From Escherichia coli (GTDB lineage Bacteria > Pseudomonadota > Gammaproteobacteria > Enterobacterales > Enterobacteriaceae), in assembly GCF_003018255.1 (NCBI RefSeq), contig NZ_CP027440.1: a stretch of 64,000 nt of DNA; one strand, written 5' to 3'. The notes beneath the pieces were generated by a model. That model was given only the letters and a program-made list of their open reading frames with translations, was not told the DNA's origin and did no database searches. A program made the translations under genes and the position numbers. This document shows, one piece after another, positions 22,080 through 60,894 of the stretch. The first letter of the stretch is position 1. Each line of letters opens with the position of its first letter.

Positions 22080-22952
22080 TTACAGTAACGCAACCCGCAA
22101 CGACATCTCTGAAGTTGTTGATTCCCCTGGTGCAAGCGCAATGAGGTCACCACCTTCCGGGCGATGATGGTCATCTGGCGCATGGCTCATCGGTTCCAGA
22201 CAGAAGAAATCAAACGCATATCCTTTATCAAACGCCGGGTCGGAAACAAAGATGAAATAACACGGTGCAGGTGGCGTCGTTTCTATGATGATGGCATAAC
22301 CCTCCTGCGGCTGCTCGATGCGGGCCTGACCATTCCATCCGGCAAAACCATTGTTCACCCACTGGCGCGGCAACGGCGCGAGCTGGTTAAAATCCAATTC
22401 TTGCGGTAGCTGCTCGCAAAACTCACCCGCCAGCCACTGCTCCCGCTCCAGCCAGTAACCGCTCGCCTGTGCCTGAATCCGCGTTTGCGGCGACAACGGA
22501 AAATAAGGATGCCAGCCGGTACCAAATGGCAGCGTCTCTGCCCCTTGATTGGTGACAGAGAGTGTCACCGTCAGCGTATCCGCCGTTAAATGAAACGTCT
22601 GGCTTACCCGATAGTGATAAACACCGCTGCGATGTTCATACACCAGACACAAGATATCATCATTGCGCGAGACACATTGCCACTGCCCCAGCCAGCCGTC
22701 GCCGTGCAGATAGTGCGCATCCCACTCAACATTCGGTTGCAGTTGATACTCACGCCCCTGCCAGACAAAACGGTTGCCGCTCACCCGGTTTGCAAATGGC
22801 ACCAGCGGAAAACAAGAGGCATCGGTTGCCACACCGTTTTTTTTACCAGGACGTAAGAGCGGCGTCGTATCGCGCCAGAAGCCTTCGATTACGCCGCCCT
22901 GGTCAGAAACGCCCAGCTTTAGCGACCCGTGGGATAAGGTATAGATGGTCAT
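22080..22952 (-). CDS. yphB: aldose 1-epimerase (mutarotase) family protein
   Basis: ORF track, 290 aa, MTIYTLSHGSLKLGVSDQGGVIEGFW... Confidence 0.9.
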   Translation of the reverse strand: MTIYTLSHGSLKLGVSDQGGVIEGFWRDTTPLLRPGKKNGVATDASCFPLVPFANRVSGNRFVWQGREYQLQPNVEWDAHYLHGDGWLGQWQCVSRNDDILCLVYEHRSGVYHYRVSQTFHLTADTLTVTLSVTNQGAETLPFGTGWHPYFPLSPQTRIQAQASGYWLEREQWLAGEFCEQLPQELDFNQLAPLPRQWVNNGFAGWNGQARIEQPQEGYAIIIETTPPAPCYFIFVSDPAFDKGYAFDFFCLEPMSHAPDDHHRPEGGDLIALAPGESTTSEMSLRVALL

Positions 22953-22963
22953 CCGCTAACTCC

Positions 22964-24025
22964 TTAATCCGGGAAGTTAATCACAACTTTCCCGCATTTG
23001 CCGCTTGCCATCAGTGCATAAGCATCTCCCGCCTGTTCCAGCGAGAAGCGGTGGGTAATGGCGTTACGCGGCCACAGTTTCCAGTCCGTTAAATCGTGGG
23101 CGCATTTTTCCATATGGAACAGACTGGTCACCCAGGAGCCGATAATCCGCCGTTGATGGTGCATCAGGTCGGCGCTAACCTCGAACTCGACTTTTCCGGT
23201 TTCACCAATGTAAACCACGCGTCCCCAGTCAGCGGTGGATTGCAGTGCCAGTAAGCGACCTGCGGCATTACCGGAACAATCAAGCGCAACATCCGCGCCG
23301 CCGTGAGTGAGTTCGGCGATTATCTGCGGCAGACCTTCGGTGGTCGCTAAATAGCCGTGATCCATCACTCCTAACTGTTTCGCCATCGCCAGACGTTCCG
23401 GCAGCATATCAACGCCGATGATCCTTTTTGCACCGCGACCTTTCGCCAGCATCATCGCCATCATGCCGACCGGCCCCAGACCGACCACCAGTACGTTATC
23501 ACTGCCGGAAACTTCGCCGCGCAAAATCCCTTCATACGCTGTACCAACGCCGCAACTGATAAACGCACCATCTTCGTAACTCAGTGCATCCGGCAGGAGG
23601 ATCAGATCTTTTTCTTCCGCCAGCAGATATTCGGCATGACCGCCGTCACGCTGCCAGCCGTAAGCCGCTTTTCCTTCGCCAGTACAAGAGATAGGAAAGC
23701 CGCGACGGCAGTTCGGGCAAAAACCACAGCCAGAAATGTGATACACCAGCACACGGTCGCCCTCTTTAAAATGGCGGCAGCCTTGCCCCATCGCCACAAT
23801 CTGCCCGCACGGTTCATGACCGTTGATAAATCCCTGGTATAACGGTTTATCGGGTGCCGCTGCCGTGGCACGGTGTTGATGATAGATATAGTGGACATCG
23901 CTTCCGCAAATCCCGGAGGATTTCATTTTGATCAGTACCTGGTTAATCCCCGGCGTCGGCACCGCAACTTCCCGCAGATCGACGGTCGAATTTCCTGGTA
24001 AATAAGCTGCCAGCATCGTTTTCAT
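22964..24025 (-). CDS. yphC: Zn-dependent alcohol/polyol dehydrogenase (MDR family)
   Basis: ORF track 22964..24058; start moved to MKTMLAAYLPGN..., 353 aa; GICGSDVH zinc motif, GHEPCG and VVGLGPVG Rossmann motif. Confidence 0.9.
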   Translation of the reverse strand: MKTMLAAYLPGNSTVDLREVAVPTPGINQVLIKMKSSGICGSDVHYIYHQHRATAAAPDKPLYQGFINGHEPCGQIVAMGQGCRHFKEGDRVLVYHISGCGFCPNCRRGFPISCTGEGKAAYGWQRDGGHAEYLLAEEKDLILLPDALSYEDGAFISCGVGTAYEGILRGEVSGSDNVLVVGLGPVGMMAMMLAKGRGAKRIIGVDMLPERLAMAKQLGVMDHGYLATTEGLPQIIAELTHGGADVALDCSGNAAGRLLALQSTADWGRVVYIGETGKVEFEVSADLMHHQRRIIGSWVTSLFHMEKCAHDLTDWKLWPRNAITHRFSLEQAGDAYALMASGKCGKVVINFPD

Positions 24026-24090
24026 AAATCCCTCATTAACAATACGATTAATTTTCATCCCTGCCGCACCCGCGCCAGGGGCGTTAAGGT

Positions 24091-25089
24091 TTAGCGTTTC
24101 GCTTTACTGCTACGCTGAGTCAGCAAGATATTCGCCAGCACCGCCACCACGATGATGACGCCGCGCACCACCTGCTGGAAAAAGGAGTTAATCCCGAGCA
24201 GCACCAGACCGTTACCGATTAGCGTAATCACCAGTACGCCAAGCAGCGTACCGAACAACGAGCCGCGACCACCGGAAAGCGCCGTACCGCCAACCACGAC
24301 CGCGGCGATGACGTCAAACTCCAGACCGTTTGCGGCACCTGCGTTACCGGAACCGAGGCGCGCCGCCAACAAAATGCCGGTCACCGCCGCTAATAATCCC
24401 GAAAGGGTAAAGATAAGAATGCGTACCCGACGAACGTTAATACCGCACAACTGTGCTGCAGTGGCATTACCGCCAACGGCAAAAACCGAGCGCCCGAAGG
24501 CGGTTTTGCGGCTGATGAACACAAACAGCGCAAACAATACCATCATGATCAGCGCGGATACCGGCACACCGAGAAATTGTCCCCCCAGCCAGTCCAGCAC
24601 TTCGTTTTCATCAATCGGCACTGGCAAGGCGTTGGTCATAAACAGCCCCATTCCGCGCAGGGCGCTCCATAAACCCAGCGTGGCAACAAAACTTGGCACG
24701 TTAAACACGCCGCGCAGCACCCCGGCGAGCGTTCCCATCAGCGCGCCTAACAGCAACACCAGCAGACACGCCACCGCCAGCGGAACTTCAAATTGCAGCA
24801 AAAATGCCAGGCACACCGAGACAAAAGCCACCATCGGACCAACGCTGACATCAATTTCACCGGAGATAATAATCAGCGTCATCGCCCATGCGGCGATCCC
24901 GATGGTGGCGGCATCGCGCAGCACGTTCATCTGGTTATTCAATGAGATAAAGCCAGGCGCGTTCAGAGAGAAGACCAGATAAAGAATGGCGATCACCACC
25001 AGCAAACCGATCTCATTAATATGGCGACTGACAAATTGTTTGAGCGAGACGCTCTTGCCCTGCGGCAATAGTAATGACGAAGCAGACAT
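24091..25089 (-). CDS. yphD: sugar ABC transporter permease (RbsC/AraH-like)
   Basis: ORF track, 332 aa, polytopic membrane protein. Confidence 0.9.
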   Translation of the reverse strand: MSASSLLLPQGKSVSLKQFVSRHINEIGLLVVIAILYLVFSLNAPGFISLNNQMNVLRDAATIGIAAWAMTLIIISGEIDVSVGPMVAFVSVCLAFLLQFEVPLAVACLLVLLLGALMGTLAGVLRGVFNVPSFVATLGLWSALRGMGLFMTNALPVPIDENEVLDWLGGQFLGVPVSALIMMVLFALFVFISRKTAFGRSVFAVGGNATAAQLCGINVRRVRILIFTLSGLLAAVTGILLAARLGSGNAGAANGLEFDVIAAVVVGGTALSGGRGSLFGTLLGVLVITLIGNGLVLLGINSFFQQVVRGVIIVVAVLANILLTQRSSKAKR

Positions 25090-25113: not shown

Positions 25114-26625
25114 TCAGTGCACAGACAGAATGGCGGACATCAGCTCATCCACATTGACCGGAGCGTGAAACTCCTGCGAGAACGTACCGTGCTGTAACAA
25201 CAGAATGCGGTCGCACACCAGCGGCAACTCCTCCACTTCACTGGAGATAAACACCACGCTTTTTCCTTCGGCAGCCAGCTCGCGGACAATACGGTAAATC
25301 TGCTGTTTGGCTTCGATATCGACGCCACGCGTTGGCTCGTCGAGCAACAAAATCTGGCTGGCGGCATAGACCCAACGACCGATCACCACTTTTTGCTGAT
25401 TGCCGCCAGAAAGCGTGCCGATGGGCGTTTCGCTACTGGCGGCCTTGACCGTCATCCGCTGCATCACCTCTTCGGTCAGGCGGCGGATGGTGGACCATTG
25501 CAGCACACCGTTGGCGCTGATTTTTTGCCGATTGGTCAGCACTGTATTTTCGTCAACGCCCAGCCAGGGAATGATCCCCGCATCTTTGCGGTTTTCTGGC
25601 GTATAGCCAATGCCGCGTTTCAGCATGTCGCCGTAATCGGGGCGAGTGATTTTCTCGCCGTTGATAACAATTTCGCCCTGTTCATACGTCTCCAGCCCAA
25701 CTATGGCTTTCAACAATTCACTGCGCCCTGCCCCCAGCAGGCCAGCAATGCCGAGTACTTCGCCACGACGGAGCGTAAAGCTGATATCCTCCAGCTTGGG
25801 CTTATGGCGTAACGCACGGACTTCCAGCACGGCCTGATCGACAATTTCCTGAGGGGAAACCGGCGCAATATCAACGTGATCGCGCCCGAGCATTAGCGAC
25901 ACAATATGATGCGTGGAGGTGTTTTCGAGCATCACATCGCCCGCCACCTGACCATCGCGCATAACGGTGGCACAGGAGGCAATGCGGCGAATTTCTTCCA
26001 TCCGGTGGCTGACATAAATCACCGCCACGCCCAGTGCCGACATCTTTTTCACCGCGCTGATCACCAGTTCAACCTCCGCACTGGCAAGCGAGCTGGTGGG
26101 TTCATCAAGAATGACCACGCGCGGCTCGCCCTTCATCACCCGCGCAATTTCCACCAGCTGCTTTTGCGCCGGGCTTAGTGTTGAAACAAGTTGTTCAGGA
26201 CTAACGTCAACGCCCAACGCCTGCAAGCAACGTTGGGCGTCCTGCGCCATTTGCAGGTAATCAATCATGCCGTTGCGGCGGGGCCACTGACCGAGGCAGA
26301 GGTTTTCCGCCACTGTCAGCCCTTCCACCAGACTTAACTCCTGATAAACCGCGCGTACCCCCAGTTCAGCGGCACGGCGAGTCAGCGTAGCTTCGTCACC
26401 TTCCAGTCGCGTCTCGCCAATCCAGATATCACCGCTATCCGGACGTTCGCTACCGGTAAGCATTCGAATGAGGGTCGATTTTCCCGCACCGTTTTTGCCT
26501 AACAGCGCACGAACTTCGCCTTTATTGAGCGTGAAGTTAACGTTATCCAGCGCAACGACGCCGGGATAACGCTTATTTCCTGCCACCACTTTTGCTACCG
26601 GGACTGCCTCTGTTGCTGTGAACAT
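25114..26625 (-). CDS. yphE: sugar ABC transporter ATPase with tandem nucleotide-binding domains
   Basis: ORF track, 503 aa; Walker A GKNGAGKST, second Walker A-like GLLGAGRSEL, signature LSGGNQQK. Confidence 0.92.
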   Translation of the reverse strand: MFTATEAVPVAKVVAGNKRYPGVVALDNVNFTLNKGEVRALLGKNGAGKSTLIRMLTGSERPDSGDIWIGETRLEGDEATLTRRAAELGVRAVYQELSLVEGLTVAENLCLGQWPRRNGMIDYLQMAQDAQRCLQALGVDVSPEQLVSTLSPAQKQLVEIARVMKGEPRVVILDEPTSSLASAEVELVISAVKKMSALGVAVIYVSHRMEEIRRIASCATVMRDGQVAGDVMLENTSTHHIVSLMLGRDHVDIAPVSPQEIVDQAVLEVRALRHKPKLEDISFTLRRGEVLGIAGLLGAGRSELLKAIVGLETYEQGEIVINGEKITRPDYGDMLKRGIGYTPENRKDAGIIPWLGVDENTVLTNRQKISANGVLQWSTIRRLTEEVMQRMTVKAASSETPIGTLSGGNQQKVVIGRWVYAASQILLLDEPTRGVDIEAKQQIYRIVRELAAEGKSVVFISSEVEELPLVCDRILLLQHGTFSQEFHAPVNVDELMSAILSVH

Positions 26626-26647: not shown

Positions 26648-27631
26648 TTAGGGCAGACCATCAACGTGCGTTGCCAGCCACTGTTTACCGTCTTCCGTTT
26701 TGGTATAGAGATCGATTGGCACCTGAATCACTTTTTCACCGTCGGCTTGTTTATTGATAACCTTCAAAGTTTGCGCGAAAACAGCATTGCCCATTTTCTT
26801 ACCGGAAATATCCACCACCGCTTTCAGCACCTGATTGTTTTCCAGCTCCTGAGCAATTTCAGTGGTCATATCCGAACCGAAAACAGCAATTTTTCCGGCC
26901 TGATTTTGATTACGTACCGCTTTTACCGCGCCGAGTGTCGCACCGCCCGATTCCCCCATAATGGCGTTGAGATCCGGCGTGGAGATAATTAGTTTTTCAC
27001 CAACGGAAATCGCTTTATCTAAAACAGTCCCTTCCTGATTAGCGACTATTTGCGCGCCGGGAACGCGGGATTTTAATACCTCTTCAAATCCTTTACGTCG
27101 CTGCACACAAACTTCAAAGGCTTCGCAATTGATGACGGCAATTTTCGGCTGGTCAATTTTATTGGCAATAAAATAATCGGCGGCAGCGTTACCCAGTTTT
27201 TTACCAAATTCCAGCGGATCGCCGACCAGATACGCCGAGACATATTTATCGACACCTTTTTGATTAATACAGGTGTTGTAGCAAATCACCGGAATACCCG
27301 CTTCACTGGCGCGACGAACGGTACGACTACTGCCATTTTCAGACACTGCCGATAAAATAATGGCATCGACATTACGCGCCACGAGGGTATCAACAAAGGT
27401 ACTTTCTTTCGAAATATCGCCCTGAGCGTTAGTTTCAATTAACTGTACCTGTACTGAAGAATCTTTTGCCGCATCCTGAACGCCCTGACGCACTCCGGCG
27501 TAATATCCCTGGGTATCAAGGTATATTGCGCCAATAGTCATTTCTTTATCCGCAGCCCTGGCAAATAGTGCGCTACCCAATAGCGTAGCCATTAATAATA
27601 AATTACGGGTTCTTGTCATTTTTTTAGGCAT
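26648..27631 (-). CDS. yphF: periplasmic sugar-binding protein of an ABC transporter
   Basis: ORF track, 327 aa; N-terminal signal peptide MPKKMTRTRNLLLMATLLGSALFARA. Confidence 0.9.
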   Translation of the reverse strand: MPKKMTRTRNLLLMATLLGSALFARAADKEMTIGAIYLDTQGYYAGVRQGVQDAAKDSSVQVQLIETNAQGDISKESTFVDTLVARNVDAIILSAVSENGSSRTVRRASEAGIPVICYNTCINQKGVDKYVSAYLVGDPLEFGKKLGNAAADYFIANKIDQPKIAVINCEAFEVCVQRRKGFEEVLKSRVPGAQIVANQEGTVLDKAISVGEKLIISTPDLNAIMGESGGATLGAVKAVRNQNQAGKIAVFGSDMTTEIAQELENNQVLKAVVDISGKKMGNAVFAQTLKVINKQADGEKVIQVPIDLYTKTEDGKQWLATHVDGLP

Positions 27632-27727
27632 AGTGCCTCCTGTAGGGTTTTTATTTACAACGGCTTATTTTAATTATTTGAGCGTGAGCGGCAGCGCGTG
27701 CCGCTCAAATATTACAGTTAATAAGGT

Positions 27728-30700
27728 TTAGTGAACGTAGCTAAAAATAAAAGGCATCACGGTGGTGAATAATGCCGCTTTCGGCCAGGCTGGATTAATC
27801 GCCATCAATTCAGCGCGAGCAGATTCATAGTGCGCAACCTCCCCGAGTCCCGCGGACGCCAGCATCGCCACCATCAGGCATTTTTCTTTATGCTGCTGTT
27901 GTAAATCGCCATACAGCGACAACAGGTCAGGTTGTGAAACAGCAAAGAAATCCGCCTCGATACTGGTTTTCGCCATCTCTTGCGCCCACTGTTTCATTTC
28001 ACTAAACAGTTGCTGTGCGGTGTGTTGTTCGCCCAGCAGTCGCAGCGCCATTCCTTGCCAGAAGAGATAATCAACCGGCTGATCGTTGTAATAACTGTGA
28101 ATGTTAATGGTGCGATCGCCAGTCGCCGCCAGACGTAAACAACGCGTCGCTTCAGTTTCATCGCCCTGCGCGTTGGCGCATATCGCCTGCCAGAACCAGA
28201 TGTCGTTGTCAGTTTGCCCCGGTAAACGGCCTTCGCTTAAATTCTCCGGATAATGCAACGCGGCATGAAGCAGTTCGCTGGCCTGCTGCGGCTCTCTGGC
28301 ATCAAGATGCTGCCAGGCGCGTAATAACTGGTTGAGGATAAACTGACTGGTGATCTTCCCTTCCCCGCCTTCCCACGGGTGGAATTTGCGCGTGGCGAGA
28401 ATGTCCGCCGCTTTGTCTGCCTGACCCGTGAGATGCCACAAATTGAGCAGTTCTGCGGTCATGTCGTCGCGTTTCAGCGCAATTTCCAGATTATTTTCCA
28501 GACGCGCCAGTCGTTTCTCCGGTGTGACACCGCTTAACTTATCCAGCAAATCCCGTTCGAAAAGCAGACGTGCATCCTGCGGCGCAAGCTGATAAGCATT
28601 ATCAAGATAACGCGCGGCCAGCTCATAATCGTGTTGCTTATTCCACGCATGGATCGCTAACCCGCGCCAGCCGTCGGCAAACTCCGGCGACATCTCTACG
28701 CAACGTTGCCATAAAGTAATGGCTTTGTTGTAGCTGCACTTGTTGTAGTAGAAGCAGGCCAGTAAATGACGGGCAAACCAGCACTCTTCAATACTCTCCA
28801 GCGCCGCCACTTCTTCCAGCGTATTCGGGAAACGGACAAACTGTGGGAAGACATCAATGGCTTTTGTGACCAGTTCGCCGCGTTCAGCTTTCGGCAGCAA
28901 GCTGGCTTGCAAGTAAAGCGGCAGCGTGCGCTGGCAGTCCAGTGCGTTCAGCATCTCTGCCGCCAGGGTGGGCATTCCCCAGTTAATCAGTTGCCCGGCG
29001 GTCATCAGGGCGTTAACGTCGCGTCCCTGACACAGACCGCGCCACTGCGCGAGGGCTGATTCGCTACGACCATCGAACCAGTTCAGCCACCACAGAGTGG
29101 CGTTCAGCGGATAATCACGCAGCAGTTTCTCGCGCTGCAAACGCGCGTTGTCCTGACGACCACTTAACACCAGCAGCAGATTATGCAGGCAAAGCACTTC
29201 CTGATTGGTTGGGCAGGCGCGAAGACTTTGTTGGCAAAAATCCAGACCAGCGTCGAAGTGACCATTACGCGCCGCCAGCCGTGCCAGACCATAATAGCCA
29301 CCTGCTTTACTGTTGCCGCTCCAGACCGCCCGCCAGAAATCCTCTTCGGCTTGTTGATATTGCCCCTGACGTTCGTAAGCACTGGCGCGAATCAAACTCG
29401 CCTGTCCGCACTGCGGATTTTTGTTTAGCGCATGTGCGCGTTTCAGCGCCTGAGTGGCATACGCCACCGCTTGCGGGAAATCTGCTCGGTTATATTCCAG
29501 CATCGCCAGCGCCAGGTTACAGCGATAATCCAGCGGATCCAGCGCCACGCCGCGCAGGTAGTAATCGAACGGTGAACGGCTGGCGTGATGATATTGCTCC
29601 AGATGCTGACCGATAAACCAGGCTTCATCTGTACTGGTAATGTCTTGTGCTGCCAGTGGCGCTTTGGCGACGTCCGGCAACGGCAACTCTTGCGGCTGAT
29701 GTTCCTGATAACTCAGTGTGATATTGCCGTCGGCATCGGAGAGTTCAATGGTCAGCCTTTCAGGATTGATACCGTGCAACACGCCCTGGATGGCGGTCGC
29801 TGGTGTCAGGGCCACGGCATCATCGAGCAACGCGTTGCATTTGCCGATTTCGCGGATCGCCAGACGGTATCCTTTCAACGGAGAGATGGCATACAGCCCC
29901 CACTCAATCCCCCGCTCGCTACGCTGGAGTTTAATCACCGCATCGCGGGAGGCGTTTTGCACCATGCCCAAAGAATGGTAAGGCAGGAAATACTGCTCAA
30001 AACGCTTCTCTTCGTAAGCATCAAGCCAGGTAAAATCGGGCTGGTTATCGGCAAAAATACCAGTCATCAGTTCGATATACGGGCCGTTATTGTCGGTCAG
30101 ACTCTTATCCCACGCCTGGCCAAATTCACTGTGTCCCCAGCTCCACTGTTTTTTACCTGGCGCAATATGGTGGTTGGCAACGTGCAGCAAACCGCCATCT
30201 TCATCGTGACACCACGCGCCAACAAAATCGTACTGTGATTTTTCAGCCATATATGAGGTTGGAACGGGCACATTTTTATAGCGAGAAATGTCCACTCCGG
30301 CGGAGTAGTCCACTTTGTAGTAAGTGCCGGTGGCGATGGGGAAAGCGGAGACGGCCCGTTTGCCGTGATCAAACACCGCCGTTACATCCGGCGGGAAGAC
30401 GCTCTGATGCCCTTCACCCCCTTTCACTGCCGGGTTGGCCCACCACAAGAAATGACGCGGCGTGGCGTTGCCGTTATAGACGCGGCTGGCAATTTCCAGT
30501 GCCGCCCGGTCAGGGCGCAGGGTGAAACCTGTCATCACCTGTAAACCGTGCATCGGCTCCGTTTCGCCGACCCACACGGTTTGTGCGCCGTCTTCATGGG
30601 CTTCGAGGGTGAAATCGACGGGCATAAAGGTGGTCGGGCGATGGTGTTGCGGCCAGTTAAACTCAATCCCGCCGGAGATCCACGGCCCCAGCAACCCCAC

Positions 30701-31009
30701 CAGCGCCGGTTTAATGACTTCATTATGATAGACAAAATCGCGCTGTTTCACTTTATCCCACGCGCGATGCACCCGACCGCCCAGCTCCGGCAGGATCATC
30801 ACTTTGATGTAGTCGTTTTCCAGCCACACCGCCTGCCAGGATTTCAGGGTTTTCTGCTCGCTCAGCGTATCGGTCACGCCGTAGGGATAAACCGCGCCGG
30901 ACGATCCCTGATAAACGCGATTTTCCAGGAACATGGGATGTATATCCTGCGGCCCGGTTTCATAGGTCGGGATCTCAACGCGCTCTTGCCACACTTTTAC
31001 TGGAGTCAT
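27728..31009 (-). CDS. yphG: large conserved protein of unknown function: N-terminal domain plus TPR-like helical repeats
   Basis: ORF track 27728..31102; start moved to ATG at 31007-31009 (MTPVKVWQERVEIPTYE...) behind a GAGG Shine-Dalgarno, 1093 aa. No obvious signal peptide. The C-terminal two thirds look like helical TPR repeats by composition; this is an impression, not a domain search. Confidence 0.88.
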   Translation of the reverse strand: MTPVKVWQERVEIPTYETGPQDIHPMFLENRVYQGSSGAVYPYGVTDTLSEQKTLKSWQAVWLENDYIKVMILPELGGRVHRAWDKVKQRDFVYHNEVIKPALVGLLGPWISGGIEFNWPQHHRPTTFMPVDFTLEAHEDGAQTVWVGETEPMHGLQVMTGFTLRPDRAALEIASRVYNGNATPRHFLWWANPAVKGGEGHQSVFPPDVTAVFDHGKRAVSAFPIATGTYYKVDYSAGVDISRYKNVPVPTSYMAEKSQYDFVGAWCHDEDGGLLHVANHHIAPGKKQWSWGHSEFGQAWDKSLTDNNGPYIELMTGIFADNQPDFTWLDAYEEKRFEQYFLPYHSLGMVQNASRDAVIKLQRSERGIEWGLYAISPLKGYRLAIREIGKCNALLDDAVALTPATAIQGVLHGINPERLTIELSDADGNITLSYQEHQPQELPLPDVAKAPLAAQDITSTDEAWFIGQHLEQYHHASRSPFDYYLRGVALDPLDYRCNLALAMLEYNRADFPQAVAYATQALKRAHALNKNPQCGQASLIRASAYERQGQYQQAEEDFWRAVWSGNSKAGGYYGLARLAARNGHFDAGLDFCQQSLRACPTNQEVLCLHNLLLVLSGRQDNARLQREKLLRDYPLNATLWWLNWFDGRSESALAQWRGLCQGRDVNALMTAGQLINWGMPTLAAEMLNALDCQRTLPLYLQASLLPKAERGELVTKAIDVFPQFVRFPNTLEEVAALESIEECWFARHLLACFYYNKCSYNKAITLWQRCVEMSPEFADGWRGLAIHAWNKQHDYELAARYLDNAYQLAPQDARLLFERDLLDKLSGVTPEKRLARLENNLEIALKRDDMTAELLNLWHLTGQADKAADILATRKFHPWEGGEGKITSQFILNQLLRAWQHLDAREPQQASELLHAALHYPENLSEGRLPGQTDNDIWFWQAICANAQGDETEATRCLRLAATGDRTINIHSYYNDQPVDYLFWQGMALRLLGEQHTAQQLFSEMKQWAQEMAKTSIEADFFAVSQPDLLSLYGDLQQQHKEKCLMVAMLASAGLGEVAHYESARAELMAINPAWPKAALFTTVMPFIFSYVH

Positions 31010-31126
31010 GGTGCCCTCAATATTAACAAGACATACTGAATTAAAAGATTTGTGGCAGTGTATTGAACAATCTGGCAATGTTTTCGCGGAATAATCACGC
31101 AATTAACTAAACAAGGTTTAGTGAAG

Positions 31127-32320
31127 ATGAGAGCCTGCATTAATAATCAACAGATTCGCCACCATAACAAATGCGTGATTCTGGAACTGCTGTACCGGCA
31201 AAAGCGCGCCAATAAATCAACGCTGGCCCGGCTGGCGCAAATTTCGATTCCGGCGGTCAGTAATATTTTGCAGGAACTGGAAAGCGAAAAACGGGTGGTG
31301 AATATCGACGATGAAAGCCAGACGCGCGGGCATAGTAGCGGTACATGGCTGATTGCGCCGGAAGGTGACTGGACGTTGTGCCTGAACGTGACGCCCACCA
31401 GTATTGAGTGTCAGGTTGCTAATGCTTGTTTAAGTCCGAAAGGTGAATTTGAGTATTTACAGATTGATGCACCGACGCCGCAGGCGCTGCTGTCCGAAAT
31501 CGAAAAATGCTGGCATCGCCACCGTAAATTGTGGCCGGACCGTACCATCAACCTGGCGCTGGCAATCCACGGTCAGGTTGATCCGGTGACCGGCGTGTCG
31601 CAAACCATGCCGCAAGCGCCGTGGACAACGCCGGTTGAGGTAAAGTATCTGCTGGAAGAGAAGCTCGGCATTCGGGTGATGGTCGATAATGACTGCGTGA
31701 TGCTGGCGCTGGCGGAGAAATGGCAAAATAATTCGCAGGAACGGGATTTCTGCGTGATCAACGTTGATTACGGCATTGGCTCGTCGTTCGTGATTAACGA
31801 GCAAATTTATCGCGGCTGTTTGTATGGTAGCGGACAGATTGGTCACACCATCGTTAATCCGGATGGCGTCGTCTGCGACTGTGGACGTTACGGCTGCCTG
31901 GAAACCGTCGCCTCGTTAAGTGCATTAAAAAAACAGGCGCGGGTATGGCTAAAATCACAACCGGTTAATACTCAGCTTGATCCTGAAAAACTGACAACAG
32001 CGCAGTTAATCGCTGCCTGGCAGAGTGGAGAACCGTGGATCACCAGCTGGGTTGATCGCTCTGCCAATGCCATTGGTTTGAGTCTGTATAACTTCCTCAA
32101 CATCCTCAATATTAATCAGATTTGGTTGTACGGTCGCAGTTGTGCCTTTGGTGAGCACTGGCTTAATACCATTATTCGCCAGACGGGATTTAACCCGTTC
32201 GACCGCGACGAAGGACCGAGCGTGAAAGCGACGAAAATTGGCTTTGGGCAATTAAGCCGCGCACAACAGGTGCTGGGGATTGGCTATTTGTATGTTGAGG
32301 CGCAGTTACGACAGATTTGA
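31127..32320 (+). CDS. yphH: ROK/NagC-family transcriptional regulator
   Basis: ORF track 31121..32320 starts at a GTG; ATG at 31127 preferred (MRACINNQQIRHHNKCVILELL...), 397 aa; N-terminal HTH; ROK zinc motif CDCGRYGCLE. Confidence 0.88.
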   Translation: MRACINNQQIRHHNKCVILELLYRQKRANKSTLARLAQISIPAVSNILQELESEKRVVNIDDESQTRGHSSGTWLIAPEGDWTLCLNVTPTSIECQVANACLSPKGEFEYLQIDAPTPQALLSEIEKCWHRHRKLWPDRTINLALAIHGQVDPVTGVSQTMPQAPWTTPVEVKYLLEEKLGIRVMVDNDCVMLALAEKWQNNSQERDFCVINVDYGIGSSFVINEQIYRGCLYGSGQIGHTIVNPDGVVCDCGRYGCLETVASLSALKKQARVWLKSQPVNTQLDPEKLTTAQLIAAWQSGEPWITSWVDRSANAIGLSLYNFLNILNINQIWLYGRSCAFGEHWLNTIIRQTGFNPFDRDEGPSVKATKIGFGQLSRAQQVLGIGYLYVEAQLRQI

Positions 32321-58252: not shown

Positions 58253-58525
58253 GTAACGCATCTGTTTTTGTTTGTCATGCTGTAGACGGATCATTATCTA
58301 TCATTATAAGTCTACAGAATCTGAACATCGCATTATCTGTGTAGAAATGCCCATTTAACTGCCTGAAGAGTAACCCAACGGCCTTTTTATTTCACCACCT
58401 AATCCTCCACCAGCCAGTAACTTCTCTTTTTCTCGCCGCCCTGAGTCAGCGTGTTTAGTCACTGTAACAAATATTAAAATAGCAGGTGTTTAATCGCACA
58501 ACATGATGCTATGCTGACCAAACCA

Positions 58526-60894
<2,369 letters not shown>

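Follow-up and report, generated by a model that had tools for sequence, protein, structure and literature searches.

We analysed a window of 64,000 nucleotides from Escherichia coli (RefSeq assembly GCF_003018255.1, contig NZ_CP027440.1), which carries the gene yphG near its middle. The genes of the window are, in order, hcaFCBD, yphA, yphBCDEFG, yphH, glyA, hmp, glnB, glrR/qseG/qseE and purL. An original prediction, made from the sequence letters and a list of open reading frames (ORFs), had described YphG as a cytoplasmic-looking protein of 1093 amino acids, encoded inside a transporter operon and ending in a repeat-rich helical part. All of these points were confirmed in our analysis. The longest reading frame ending at 27728 on the minus strand starts at a TTG (31102) and would give 1124 amino acids; the ATG at 31009 is the one preceded by GAGGG, and it gives the 1093-residue product. 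The N-termini of homologues match the equivalent of this ATG (e.g. P0121 'MKETVNIWQEEIAIPTY' versus 'MTPVKVWQERVEIPTY'), and RefSeq holds an identical coding sequence of 3282 nt, labelled 'yphG: DUF5107 domain-containing protein'. We found neither a signal peptide nor a transmembrane-like segment in YphG. Its best 19-residue Kyte-Doolittle window was 1.22 and its N-terminus scored -0.81, compared with 2.2 over 12 residues for the signal peptide of YphF from the same operon. The operon runs from yphG through yphF, yphE, yphD and yphC to yphB, with yphH divergent from it (Table 1).

Of 5426 complete E. coli genomes, 5422 had the gene, in every case on the chromosome; it is a core gene of the species. 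Interrupted alleles were seen in some E. coli (locus L006 of SCPM-O-B-8794; proteins P0001 and P0005), for example as two ORFs of 841 and 244 amino acids or as products of 643 and 741 amino acids. These might represent occasional pseudogenisation or assembly errors.

Table 1. Features of the yph region and of the YphG product (window coordinates).
Feature	Coordinates	Strand	Remarks
yphG coding sequence	27728..31009	(-)	1093 amino acids and stop; start ATG 31009 with GAGGG Shine-Dalgarno sequence
DUF5107 domain, residues 1-345	29975..31009	(-)	Galactose-mutarotase-like beta-supersandwich; most conserved part of YphG
E116-F-N-W-P-Q-H122-H123-R124	30638..30664	(-)	Nearly invariant; aligned with 'FANR', a sugar-binding stretch in YphB and GalM
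Asn192 ('WWANP')	30434..30436	(-)	Invariant; at the catalytic-His position of mutarotases
Glu313	30071..30073	(-)	Invariant, in strand 311-317 ('PYIELMTG...NQPD'); candidate for the catalytic Glu of mutarotases
Second small beta-sandwich, residues 357-435	29705..29941	(-)	From the secondary structure of the AlphaFold2 model; poorly conserved
Tetratricopeptide repeat (TPR) solenoid, residues 456-1093	27731..29644	(-)	About 34 predicted helices; from Pfam TPR, profile matches and helix list
'PWEGGEG' loop in the TPR region	28358..28378	(-)	F876 conserved 0.94, E880 0.97
yphB	22080..22952	(-)	Aldose 1-epimerase family protein; PDB 3NRE = b2544; structural homologue of the YphG N-terminal domain
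yphC	22964..24058	(-)	Zn-dependent polyol/alcohol dehydrogenase family protein
yphD	24091-25089	(-)	Permease
yphE	25114-26625	(-)	ATP-binding cassette (ABC) ATPase
yphF	26648..27631	(-)	Periplasmic CUT2-type monosaccharide-binding protein with signal peptide
yphH	31127..32320	(+)	Divergent ROK-family regulator; presumed operon regulator
Near-perfect palindrome, 23 bp	31103-31125		Putative YphH operator
GC-rich hairpin	27676-27710		In the yphG-yphF gap

Domains and fold of YphG

The original prediction had stated that the first 480 or so residues bear no signature that could be named. This did not hold. Pfam placed DUF5107 (PF17128) on residues 39-324 (E 3.1e-55), and a sequence search of the PDB with the N-terminal domain returned a sole match, 5CD6 (E 1e-20). 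This entry is BDI_1685 of Parabacteroides distasonis, solved by structural genomics and titled 'TPR-domain containing protein'. It has 580 amino acids, is 24% identical to YphG and belongs to a shorter branch, in which most of the TPR arm and the PWEGGEG loop are missing. No papers citing 5CD6 were found, and no function has been assigned to it.

We modelled residues 1-490 with AlphaFold2 (AF2), using an alignment of 108 family sequences (A1) from which the family profile was also built. The model reached a predicted local distance difference test score (pLDDT) of 96.7 and a predicted template modelling score of 0.94. A single-sequence AlphaFold prediction of full-length YphG was uninformative (pLDDT 36). 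In the model, residues 1-345 are all beta, a small beta-sandwich occupies residues 357-435 and helices begin at residue 460. The N-terminal domain has the galactose-mutarotase beta-supersandwich fold, and beyond DUF5107 itself its closest structural neighbours are all aldose or hexose-6-phosphate 1-epimerases.

At the level of sequence, this kinship was less direct. The Pfam search gave no match of YphG to PF01263, and a profile-profile comparison (hhalign) of DUF5107 with YphB or GalM gave a probability of at most 6%, which is not significant. Likewise, YphG gave no direct hidden Markov model match to GalM, to YeaD/hexose-6-phosphate mutarotase, to YphB (3NRE) or to DUF4432. The only link in sequence was provided by a stand-alone family of about 320 amino acids, here called c17, whose gene, in Paenibacillus and Ruminiclostridium, adjoins that of the YphG homologue (L047 13318-14292; also L022, L025, L035, L050 and L073). 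Residues 53-213 of DUF5107 aligned with c17 at a probability of 96.7% (E 3e-10), c17 with YphB at 95.1% and YphB with GalM at 94.8%. Members of c17 have borderline precomputed Pfam matches to PF17128 (DUF5107), PF01263 (Aldose_epim) and PF14486 (DUF4432), and are named after all three. Judged from these profiles, c17 is an intermediate between the three families. Because c17 bridges DUF5107 and YphB/GalM, with its mixed Pfam matches, the N-terminal domain of YphG can be placed in the galactose-mutarotase (aldose 1-epimerase) superfamily. It is a divergent member of this superfamily and not a new fold. In 5CD6 and in AFDB matches of 465-511 amino acids, the domain stands without a long TPR arm, and it is therefore an autonomous module.

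The helical part proved to be TPR, and it covers residues ~456-1093, or 58% of YphG. Pfam reported TPR_16 (E 2.9e-6) and weaker TPR matches at about 499-607, 746-816 and 896-954, and NCBIfam reported for YphG only sub-threshold TPR matches. The family profile of 108 members matched consensus TPR in the PDB at 1.4e-100 and the TPR arms of OGT (2.5e-35) and SPINDLY at 1e-35 to 1e-26. Because of these matches, the C-terminal ~640 residues are true TPR and not an (alpha/alpha)6 barrel. An (alpha/alpha)6 glycoside hydrolase was thus rejected as a candidate for the helical part. An exported TPR scaffold resembling BcsC, PgaA or AlgK was also rejected, because YphG has no signal peptide. The conserved positions of the arm are mostly the consensus Ala, Gly, Leu, Trp and Pro of the repeat. 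Polar ones are few (Q472, Y483, D491, R782, E818 and E880), and the last of them belongs to PWEGGEG, which could be a functional loop.

We compared this architecture with known systems. With its extra beta-sandwich and ~600 TPR residues, YphG is three to four times as large as any mutarotase characterised so far. Glycoside hydrolase (GH) families GH15, GH65 and GH94 and polysaccharide lyase families PL15 and PL17 also have a helical domain joined to a mutarotase-like beta-sandwich. However, in YphG the helices form an open solenoid of TPRs instead of an (alpha/alpha)6 barrel or toroid, and its beta domain is much nearer to the free-standing epimerases than to the accessory domains of those families. 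In GH174 and OpgG/GH186 the supersandwich serves as the catalytic domain. No Pfam match of YphG to a CAZy family was found. OGT and SPINDLY resemble YphG in having a TPR arm and a sugar-handling domain, with a TPR similarity that is generic to repeats. They differ in their opposite domain order and in their catalytic fold, which is that of glycosyltransferase family 41 (GT41) rather than the mutarotase-like fold of YphG.

Conserved positions and genomic neighbours

Residues 1-480 were searched with phmmer against 1.84 billion representatives. The search retrieved 3933 representative clusters, 891 of them at E<=1e-30. Among the best 150 matches, most had 1040-1170 amino acids and covered the whole query, and therefore the entire architecture of about 1100 residues is conserved. 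When 105 sequences were aligned over their full length, the order DUF5107, beta-sandwich and TPR could be followed from end to end. Within the first 480 residues, homologues from Bacteroidota, Paenibacillus, clostridia, Acidobacteriota and Planctomycetota are still 53-58% identical to the E. coli protein.

The three regions differed in conservation. We took column identities from the 105-sequence alignment and calculated ratios of nonsynonymous to synonymous substitution rates (dN/dS) within Enterobacteriaceae. The mutarotase-like domain (1-345) had a mean column identity of 0.605, 64 positions conserved at >=90% and a dN/dS of 0.013-0.03. The corresponding mean identity and dN/dS were 0.31 and 0.12-0.21 for the second sandwich (346-455), and 0.39 and 0.07-0.11 for the TPR region (456-1093), which had 18 positions at >=90%. 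The whole of yphG is under purifying selection, and its mutarotase-like domain is constrained like a core enzyme. Signal peptides are absent from the closer relatives and frequent in distant ones (35-38% identity). Secreted relatives were found, for instance, at L086 (6547-9876) and L089 (347-4619). One secreted DUF5107-TPR member lies inside a polysaccharide utilisation locus (PUL) of the order SusC-SusD-GH16-DUF5107-GH16; another secreted form has 1417 amino acids and a weak CBM9 match.

The active-site positions were compared through chained alignments, from GalM to YphB, then to c17 and to YphG. In GalM of Lactococcus lactis, the catalytic residues are the acid His170 (in NHxYFN), a second active-site His96 (in LHGG) and the base Glu304 (in C-L-E-x-Q). 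The motif of the catalytic His runs from 'NHAYFN' in GalM through 'WHPYF' in YphB and 'PHPQF' in c17 to 'WANPAV' in YphG, where the His is replaced by Asn192, invariant across the 108 sequences. The LHGG segment, which is 'LHGDGW' in YphB and 'PDHGELW' in c17, falls into a gap in YphG; H122 and H123 of YphG belong to another stretch. Over residues 215-350 no significant alignment with mutarotases was obtained. Glu313 is a candidate for the equivalent of the catalytic Glu, with the near-invariant D306 as an alternative. Residues 1-345 contain 15 invariant and about 50 near-invariant positions in the 108 sequences, mostly polar or aromatic. Polar residues among the conserved ones are E64, D85, K86, E116, N118, H122, H123, R124, N192, H215, D306, E313, N322, Q323 and D325. 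Compared with mutarotases, YphG has an invariant set of its own (EFNWPQHHR, H215, D306, E313 and the NQPD that follows E313), and several Asp, Lys and Trp are also conserved. By these substitutions, YphG is not a canonical mutarotase.

We surveyed the genomic neighbours of relatives at 80 loci, drawn from one-genome-per-species contigs of several phyla. ORFs were called, neighbours were clustered and representatives were annotated by NCBIfam, Pfam and the PDB. A YphG-type gene was present at all 80 loci, with an ORF of 1086-1196 amino acids at 77. A frequent partner was a XylE-type sugar porter of the major facilitator superfamily (MFS), found at 53 loci, on the same strand at 52 of these and directly adjacent at 42. 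When any sugar transporter was counted, including the ABC type of E. coli, 57 of the 80 loci had one within five genes. Sugar porters of the MFS and CUT2 ABC transporters are classically carriers of monosaccharides. An AraC or ROK regulator was within five genes at 58 loci, mostly divergent; the ROK gene, where carried (12 loci), was always adjacent and divergent. A mutarotase (YphB, GalM or c17) was within five genes at 24 loci.

Enzymes acting on galactosides were recurrent. A beta-galactosidase of the GH2_20 subfamily was encoded at 30 loci (PDB 8U01, E 7.5e-184), and this subfamily is described as acting on decorated xyloglucan and rhamnogalacturonan II (PMC12243196). Less frequent were GH36 alpha-galactosidases (10 loci), sulfatases (9), GH95 enzymes (7), SGNH esterases (7), GH35 beta-galactosidases (6), GH97 (5) and GH31 (3). 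Bacillus, Photobacterium and Butyrivibrio have a GH2_20 partner without a signal peptide, and therefore the whole set is cytoplasmic in those three genera. At two loci, a ROK-DUF5107 pair stood beside a GPH-type (MFS_2) glycoside transporter. The further partner was a GH36 alpha-galactosidase in Citrobacter sp. FP75 (L016) and a cytoplasmic GH2_20 beta-galactosidase in Photobacterium pectinilyticum (L018). Their content fits the galactoside theme, and the recurrent theme among the neighbours is galactosides and galactose.

The typical cassette varied with lineage. With arrows for direction, it was <AraC >MFS >DUF5107-TPR >GH2_20 in Bacteroidota, <ROK >DUF5107-TPR >MFS >YphB in most Enterobacterales and <AraC >DUF5107-TPR >c17 in Paenibacillus. 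The Escherichia-type set (YphF, YphE, YphD and YphC) was found at only five of the 80 loci, three of which also kept the MFS porter. For this reason, we regard the pairing with a sugar transporter as the rule of the family, and the ABC transporter and YphC as lineage-specific additions. In Enterobacter sp. (L008), Enterobacteriaceae RIT691 (L009) and Budvicia (L010), the YphFED ABC transporter coexists with a XylE-type porter located after yphB. This suggests that the YphFED transporter was added to an ancestral cassette of the MFS type and that Escherichia subsequently lost the MFS gene.

The solved relatives of YphF are all binding proteins for ribose, galactose, galactofuranose, allose or arabinose. 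We considered naming the ligand of YphF or YphC from such PDB relatives and rejected this, as the relatives are too distant. YphF was induced during growth on levoglucosan, along with XylF, MalE, MglA and others (PMC8753852). A specific link between YphF and levoglucosan was also rejected; the pattern looks like general catabolite derepression.

Proposed function and alternatives

The original prediction had offered three options for YphG, namely a scaffold, a glycoside-processing enzyme of a new fold or a regulator. The idea of an enzyme is the part that we retain, without the new fold. With modest confidence, we favour YphG being a cytoplasmic carbohydrate-active enzyme whose substrate is an imported sugar. 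This reading draws on observed features, namely the fold and family of the protein, its architecture and residue substitutions, its synteny and the purifying selection on it; from these we infer catalysis, a substrate and an order of the pathway. The DUF5107 domain would be the working part, and most likely it binds a sugar in the canonical pocket with re-tooled residues (Asn192, the HHR of the conserved stretch and Glu313). YphDEF would import a sugar of monosaccharide size on which YphG then acts; in most other bacteria, the adjacent XylE-type porter would take the place of YphDEF. The substrate is probably a galactose-type sugar or a small galactoside. The chemistry might take place at or beside the anomeric centre, and might be a ring-form or other isomerisation or the splitting of a small glycoside. 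YphB, a genuine mutarotase, and the dehydrogenase YphC would then receive the product, and YphH would control the whole operon. The small beta-sandwich and the TPR repeats might form an accessory arm for oligomerisation or partner binding, or serve as a lid.

Several points weigh against this reading. Neither the catalytic His nor the LHGG segment of mutarotases was recovered in the chained alignments, so the domain possibly only binds its ligand, and no significant alignment supported a counterpart of the catalytic Glu. The same fold is used without catalysis in the P1 domain of YidC and in the chloroplast NDH subunit PNSB2. TPR arms are classical devices for protein-protein interaction. Moreover, the substrate is read from synteny alone, and the neighbours vary by lineage, with YphC and YphF at five of the 80 loci. 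Finally, the structural model spans residues 1-490, so any share of the TPR arm in the pocket lies outside it.

A more specific form of the proposal is tentative, and we consider it possible rather than probable. DUF5107-TPR would here be an unrecognised family of carbohydrate-active enzymes with a re-tooled mutarotase fold as its catalytic domain. The enzyme would either hydrolyse or phosphorolyse small galactosides in the cytoplasm, or isomerise a galactose-type sugar, between furanose and pyranose or in another way, and PWEGGEG would either complete the active site or gate it. In that case, YphG would take the first catabolic step of a cryptic pathway that leads from YphDEF to YphG, YphB and YphC.

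The alternative that survives best is a sugar-sensing adaptor or scaffold with no catalysis of its own. The domain would bind the imported sugar, and the arm would recruit partners such as a regulator (YphH or one of the AraC type), the ATPase of the transporter, or YphB and YphC, thereby tuning expression or channelling substrate. An arm that makes up most of the protein would suit such a role, as would the loss of the catalytic His and the LHGG segment, the non-catalytic use of the fold in YidC P1 and PNSB2, and the regulator genes found nearby, usually divergent, at most loci. However, the adjacent regulators already have sensor domains (AraC has a cupin ligand domain of its own, and ROK also carries a sensor domain), and their class switches between AraC and ROK with lineage while YphG remains about 55% identical. 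The strongest conservation also lies in the polar residues of the sugar domain (dN/dS ~0.02 and the 64 positions noted above) and not in the arm, and the secreted members in PULs would be out of reach of cytoplasmic regulators. On balance, an adaptor seems unlikely to us.

A plain, if large, aldose 1-epimerase for the transported sugar is less likely still, and we regard it as rather improbable. The nearest structural neighbours and the galactose and galactoside gene contexts would agree with such a mutarotase, and the invariant strand Glu followed by NQPD is reminiscent of the 'E-x-Q...PD' pattern. On the other hand, YphG lacks the PF01263 match, a significant profile alignment with YphB or GalM, the catalytic His (which is Asn) and the second His segment. 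It would also be redundant with the bona fide mutarotase next door at 24 loci, and a TPR arm of 600 residues would be left unexplained. A glycoside-processing enzyme with a previously unseen fold might have been imagined from sequence-level matches to only one DUF and one structural-genomics entry, and it is refuted by the known galactose-mutarotase supersandwich followed by TPR repeats.

In the searchable literature on yphG, DUF5107, 5CD6 and the other yph genes, we found no functional study and no mention of the fold relationship. The gene appears there in lists only (ethanol response, chaperone over-expression and Klebsiella targets for polymerase chain reaction). DUF5107 is mentioned once, as a family of 'unknown function' enriched in phagotrophic protists beside digestive enzymes. 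The gene, the DUF, the distant structure, the fold and both domain types were already known, and what is new is a mutarotase-superfamily branch in which catalytic residues are substituted and a TPR solenoid is attached. The parts and the context would not surprise a specialist. Nevertheless, yphG is among the largest still-uncharacterised genes of E. coli, a core gene with a strongly constrained sugar domain, and it makes a well-defined experimental target. A reaction assigned to YphG would give an annotation to protein clusters that number from hundreds to a few thousand, would probably define a new enzyme class on the mutarotase fold and would reveal the substrate of the cryptic yph operon. 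The family is widely distributed and bears on glycan utilisation in gut and soil, where bacteria carry its secreted branch in PULs.

Putative regulatory elements of the operon

The 23-bp palindrome between yphH and yphG (TTAACTAAAC-aag-GTTTAGTGAA) lies directly upstream of the ATG of yphH (31127) and precedes that of yphG by about 95 bp. The TTG of the longest yphG reading frame abuts it. Operators of the NagC/Mlc-type ROK regulators have the same size, and because of this agreement the palindrome may be the operator of YphH. Its core (ACTAAACNNNGTTTAGT) was kept in the E. coli and E. albertii loci and was not conserved in those of other genera. A second match to the core, with one mismatch, was found at 58517-58533 (ACCAAACCATGTTTAGT). 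This site is well away from the yph genes and is probably a chance match; two matches occurred in 1 of 100 shuffles.

The gap of 96 bp between yphG and yphF holds the hairpin GAGCGGCA-cgcgc-TGCCGCTC. A different outer stem could also form (ATTTGAGCG...CGCTCAAAT), and no run of T follows. The hairpin may act as an intercistronic RNA stabiliser or as an attenuator between yphG and the transporter genes.

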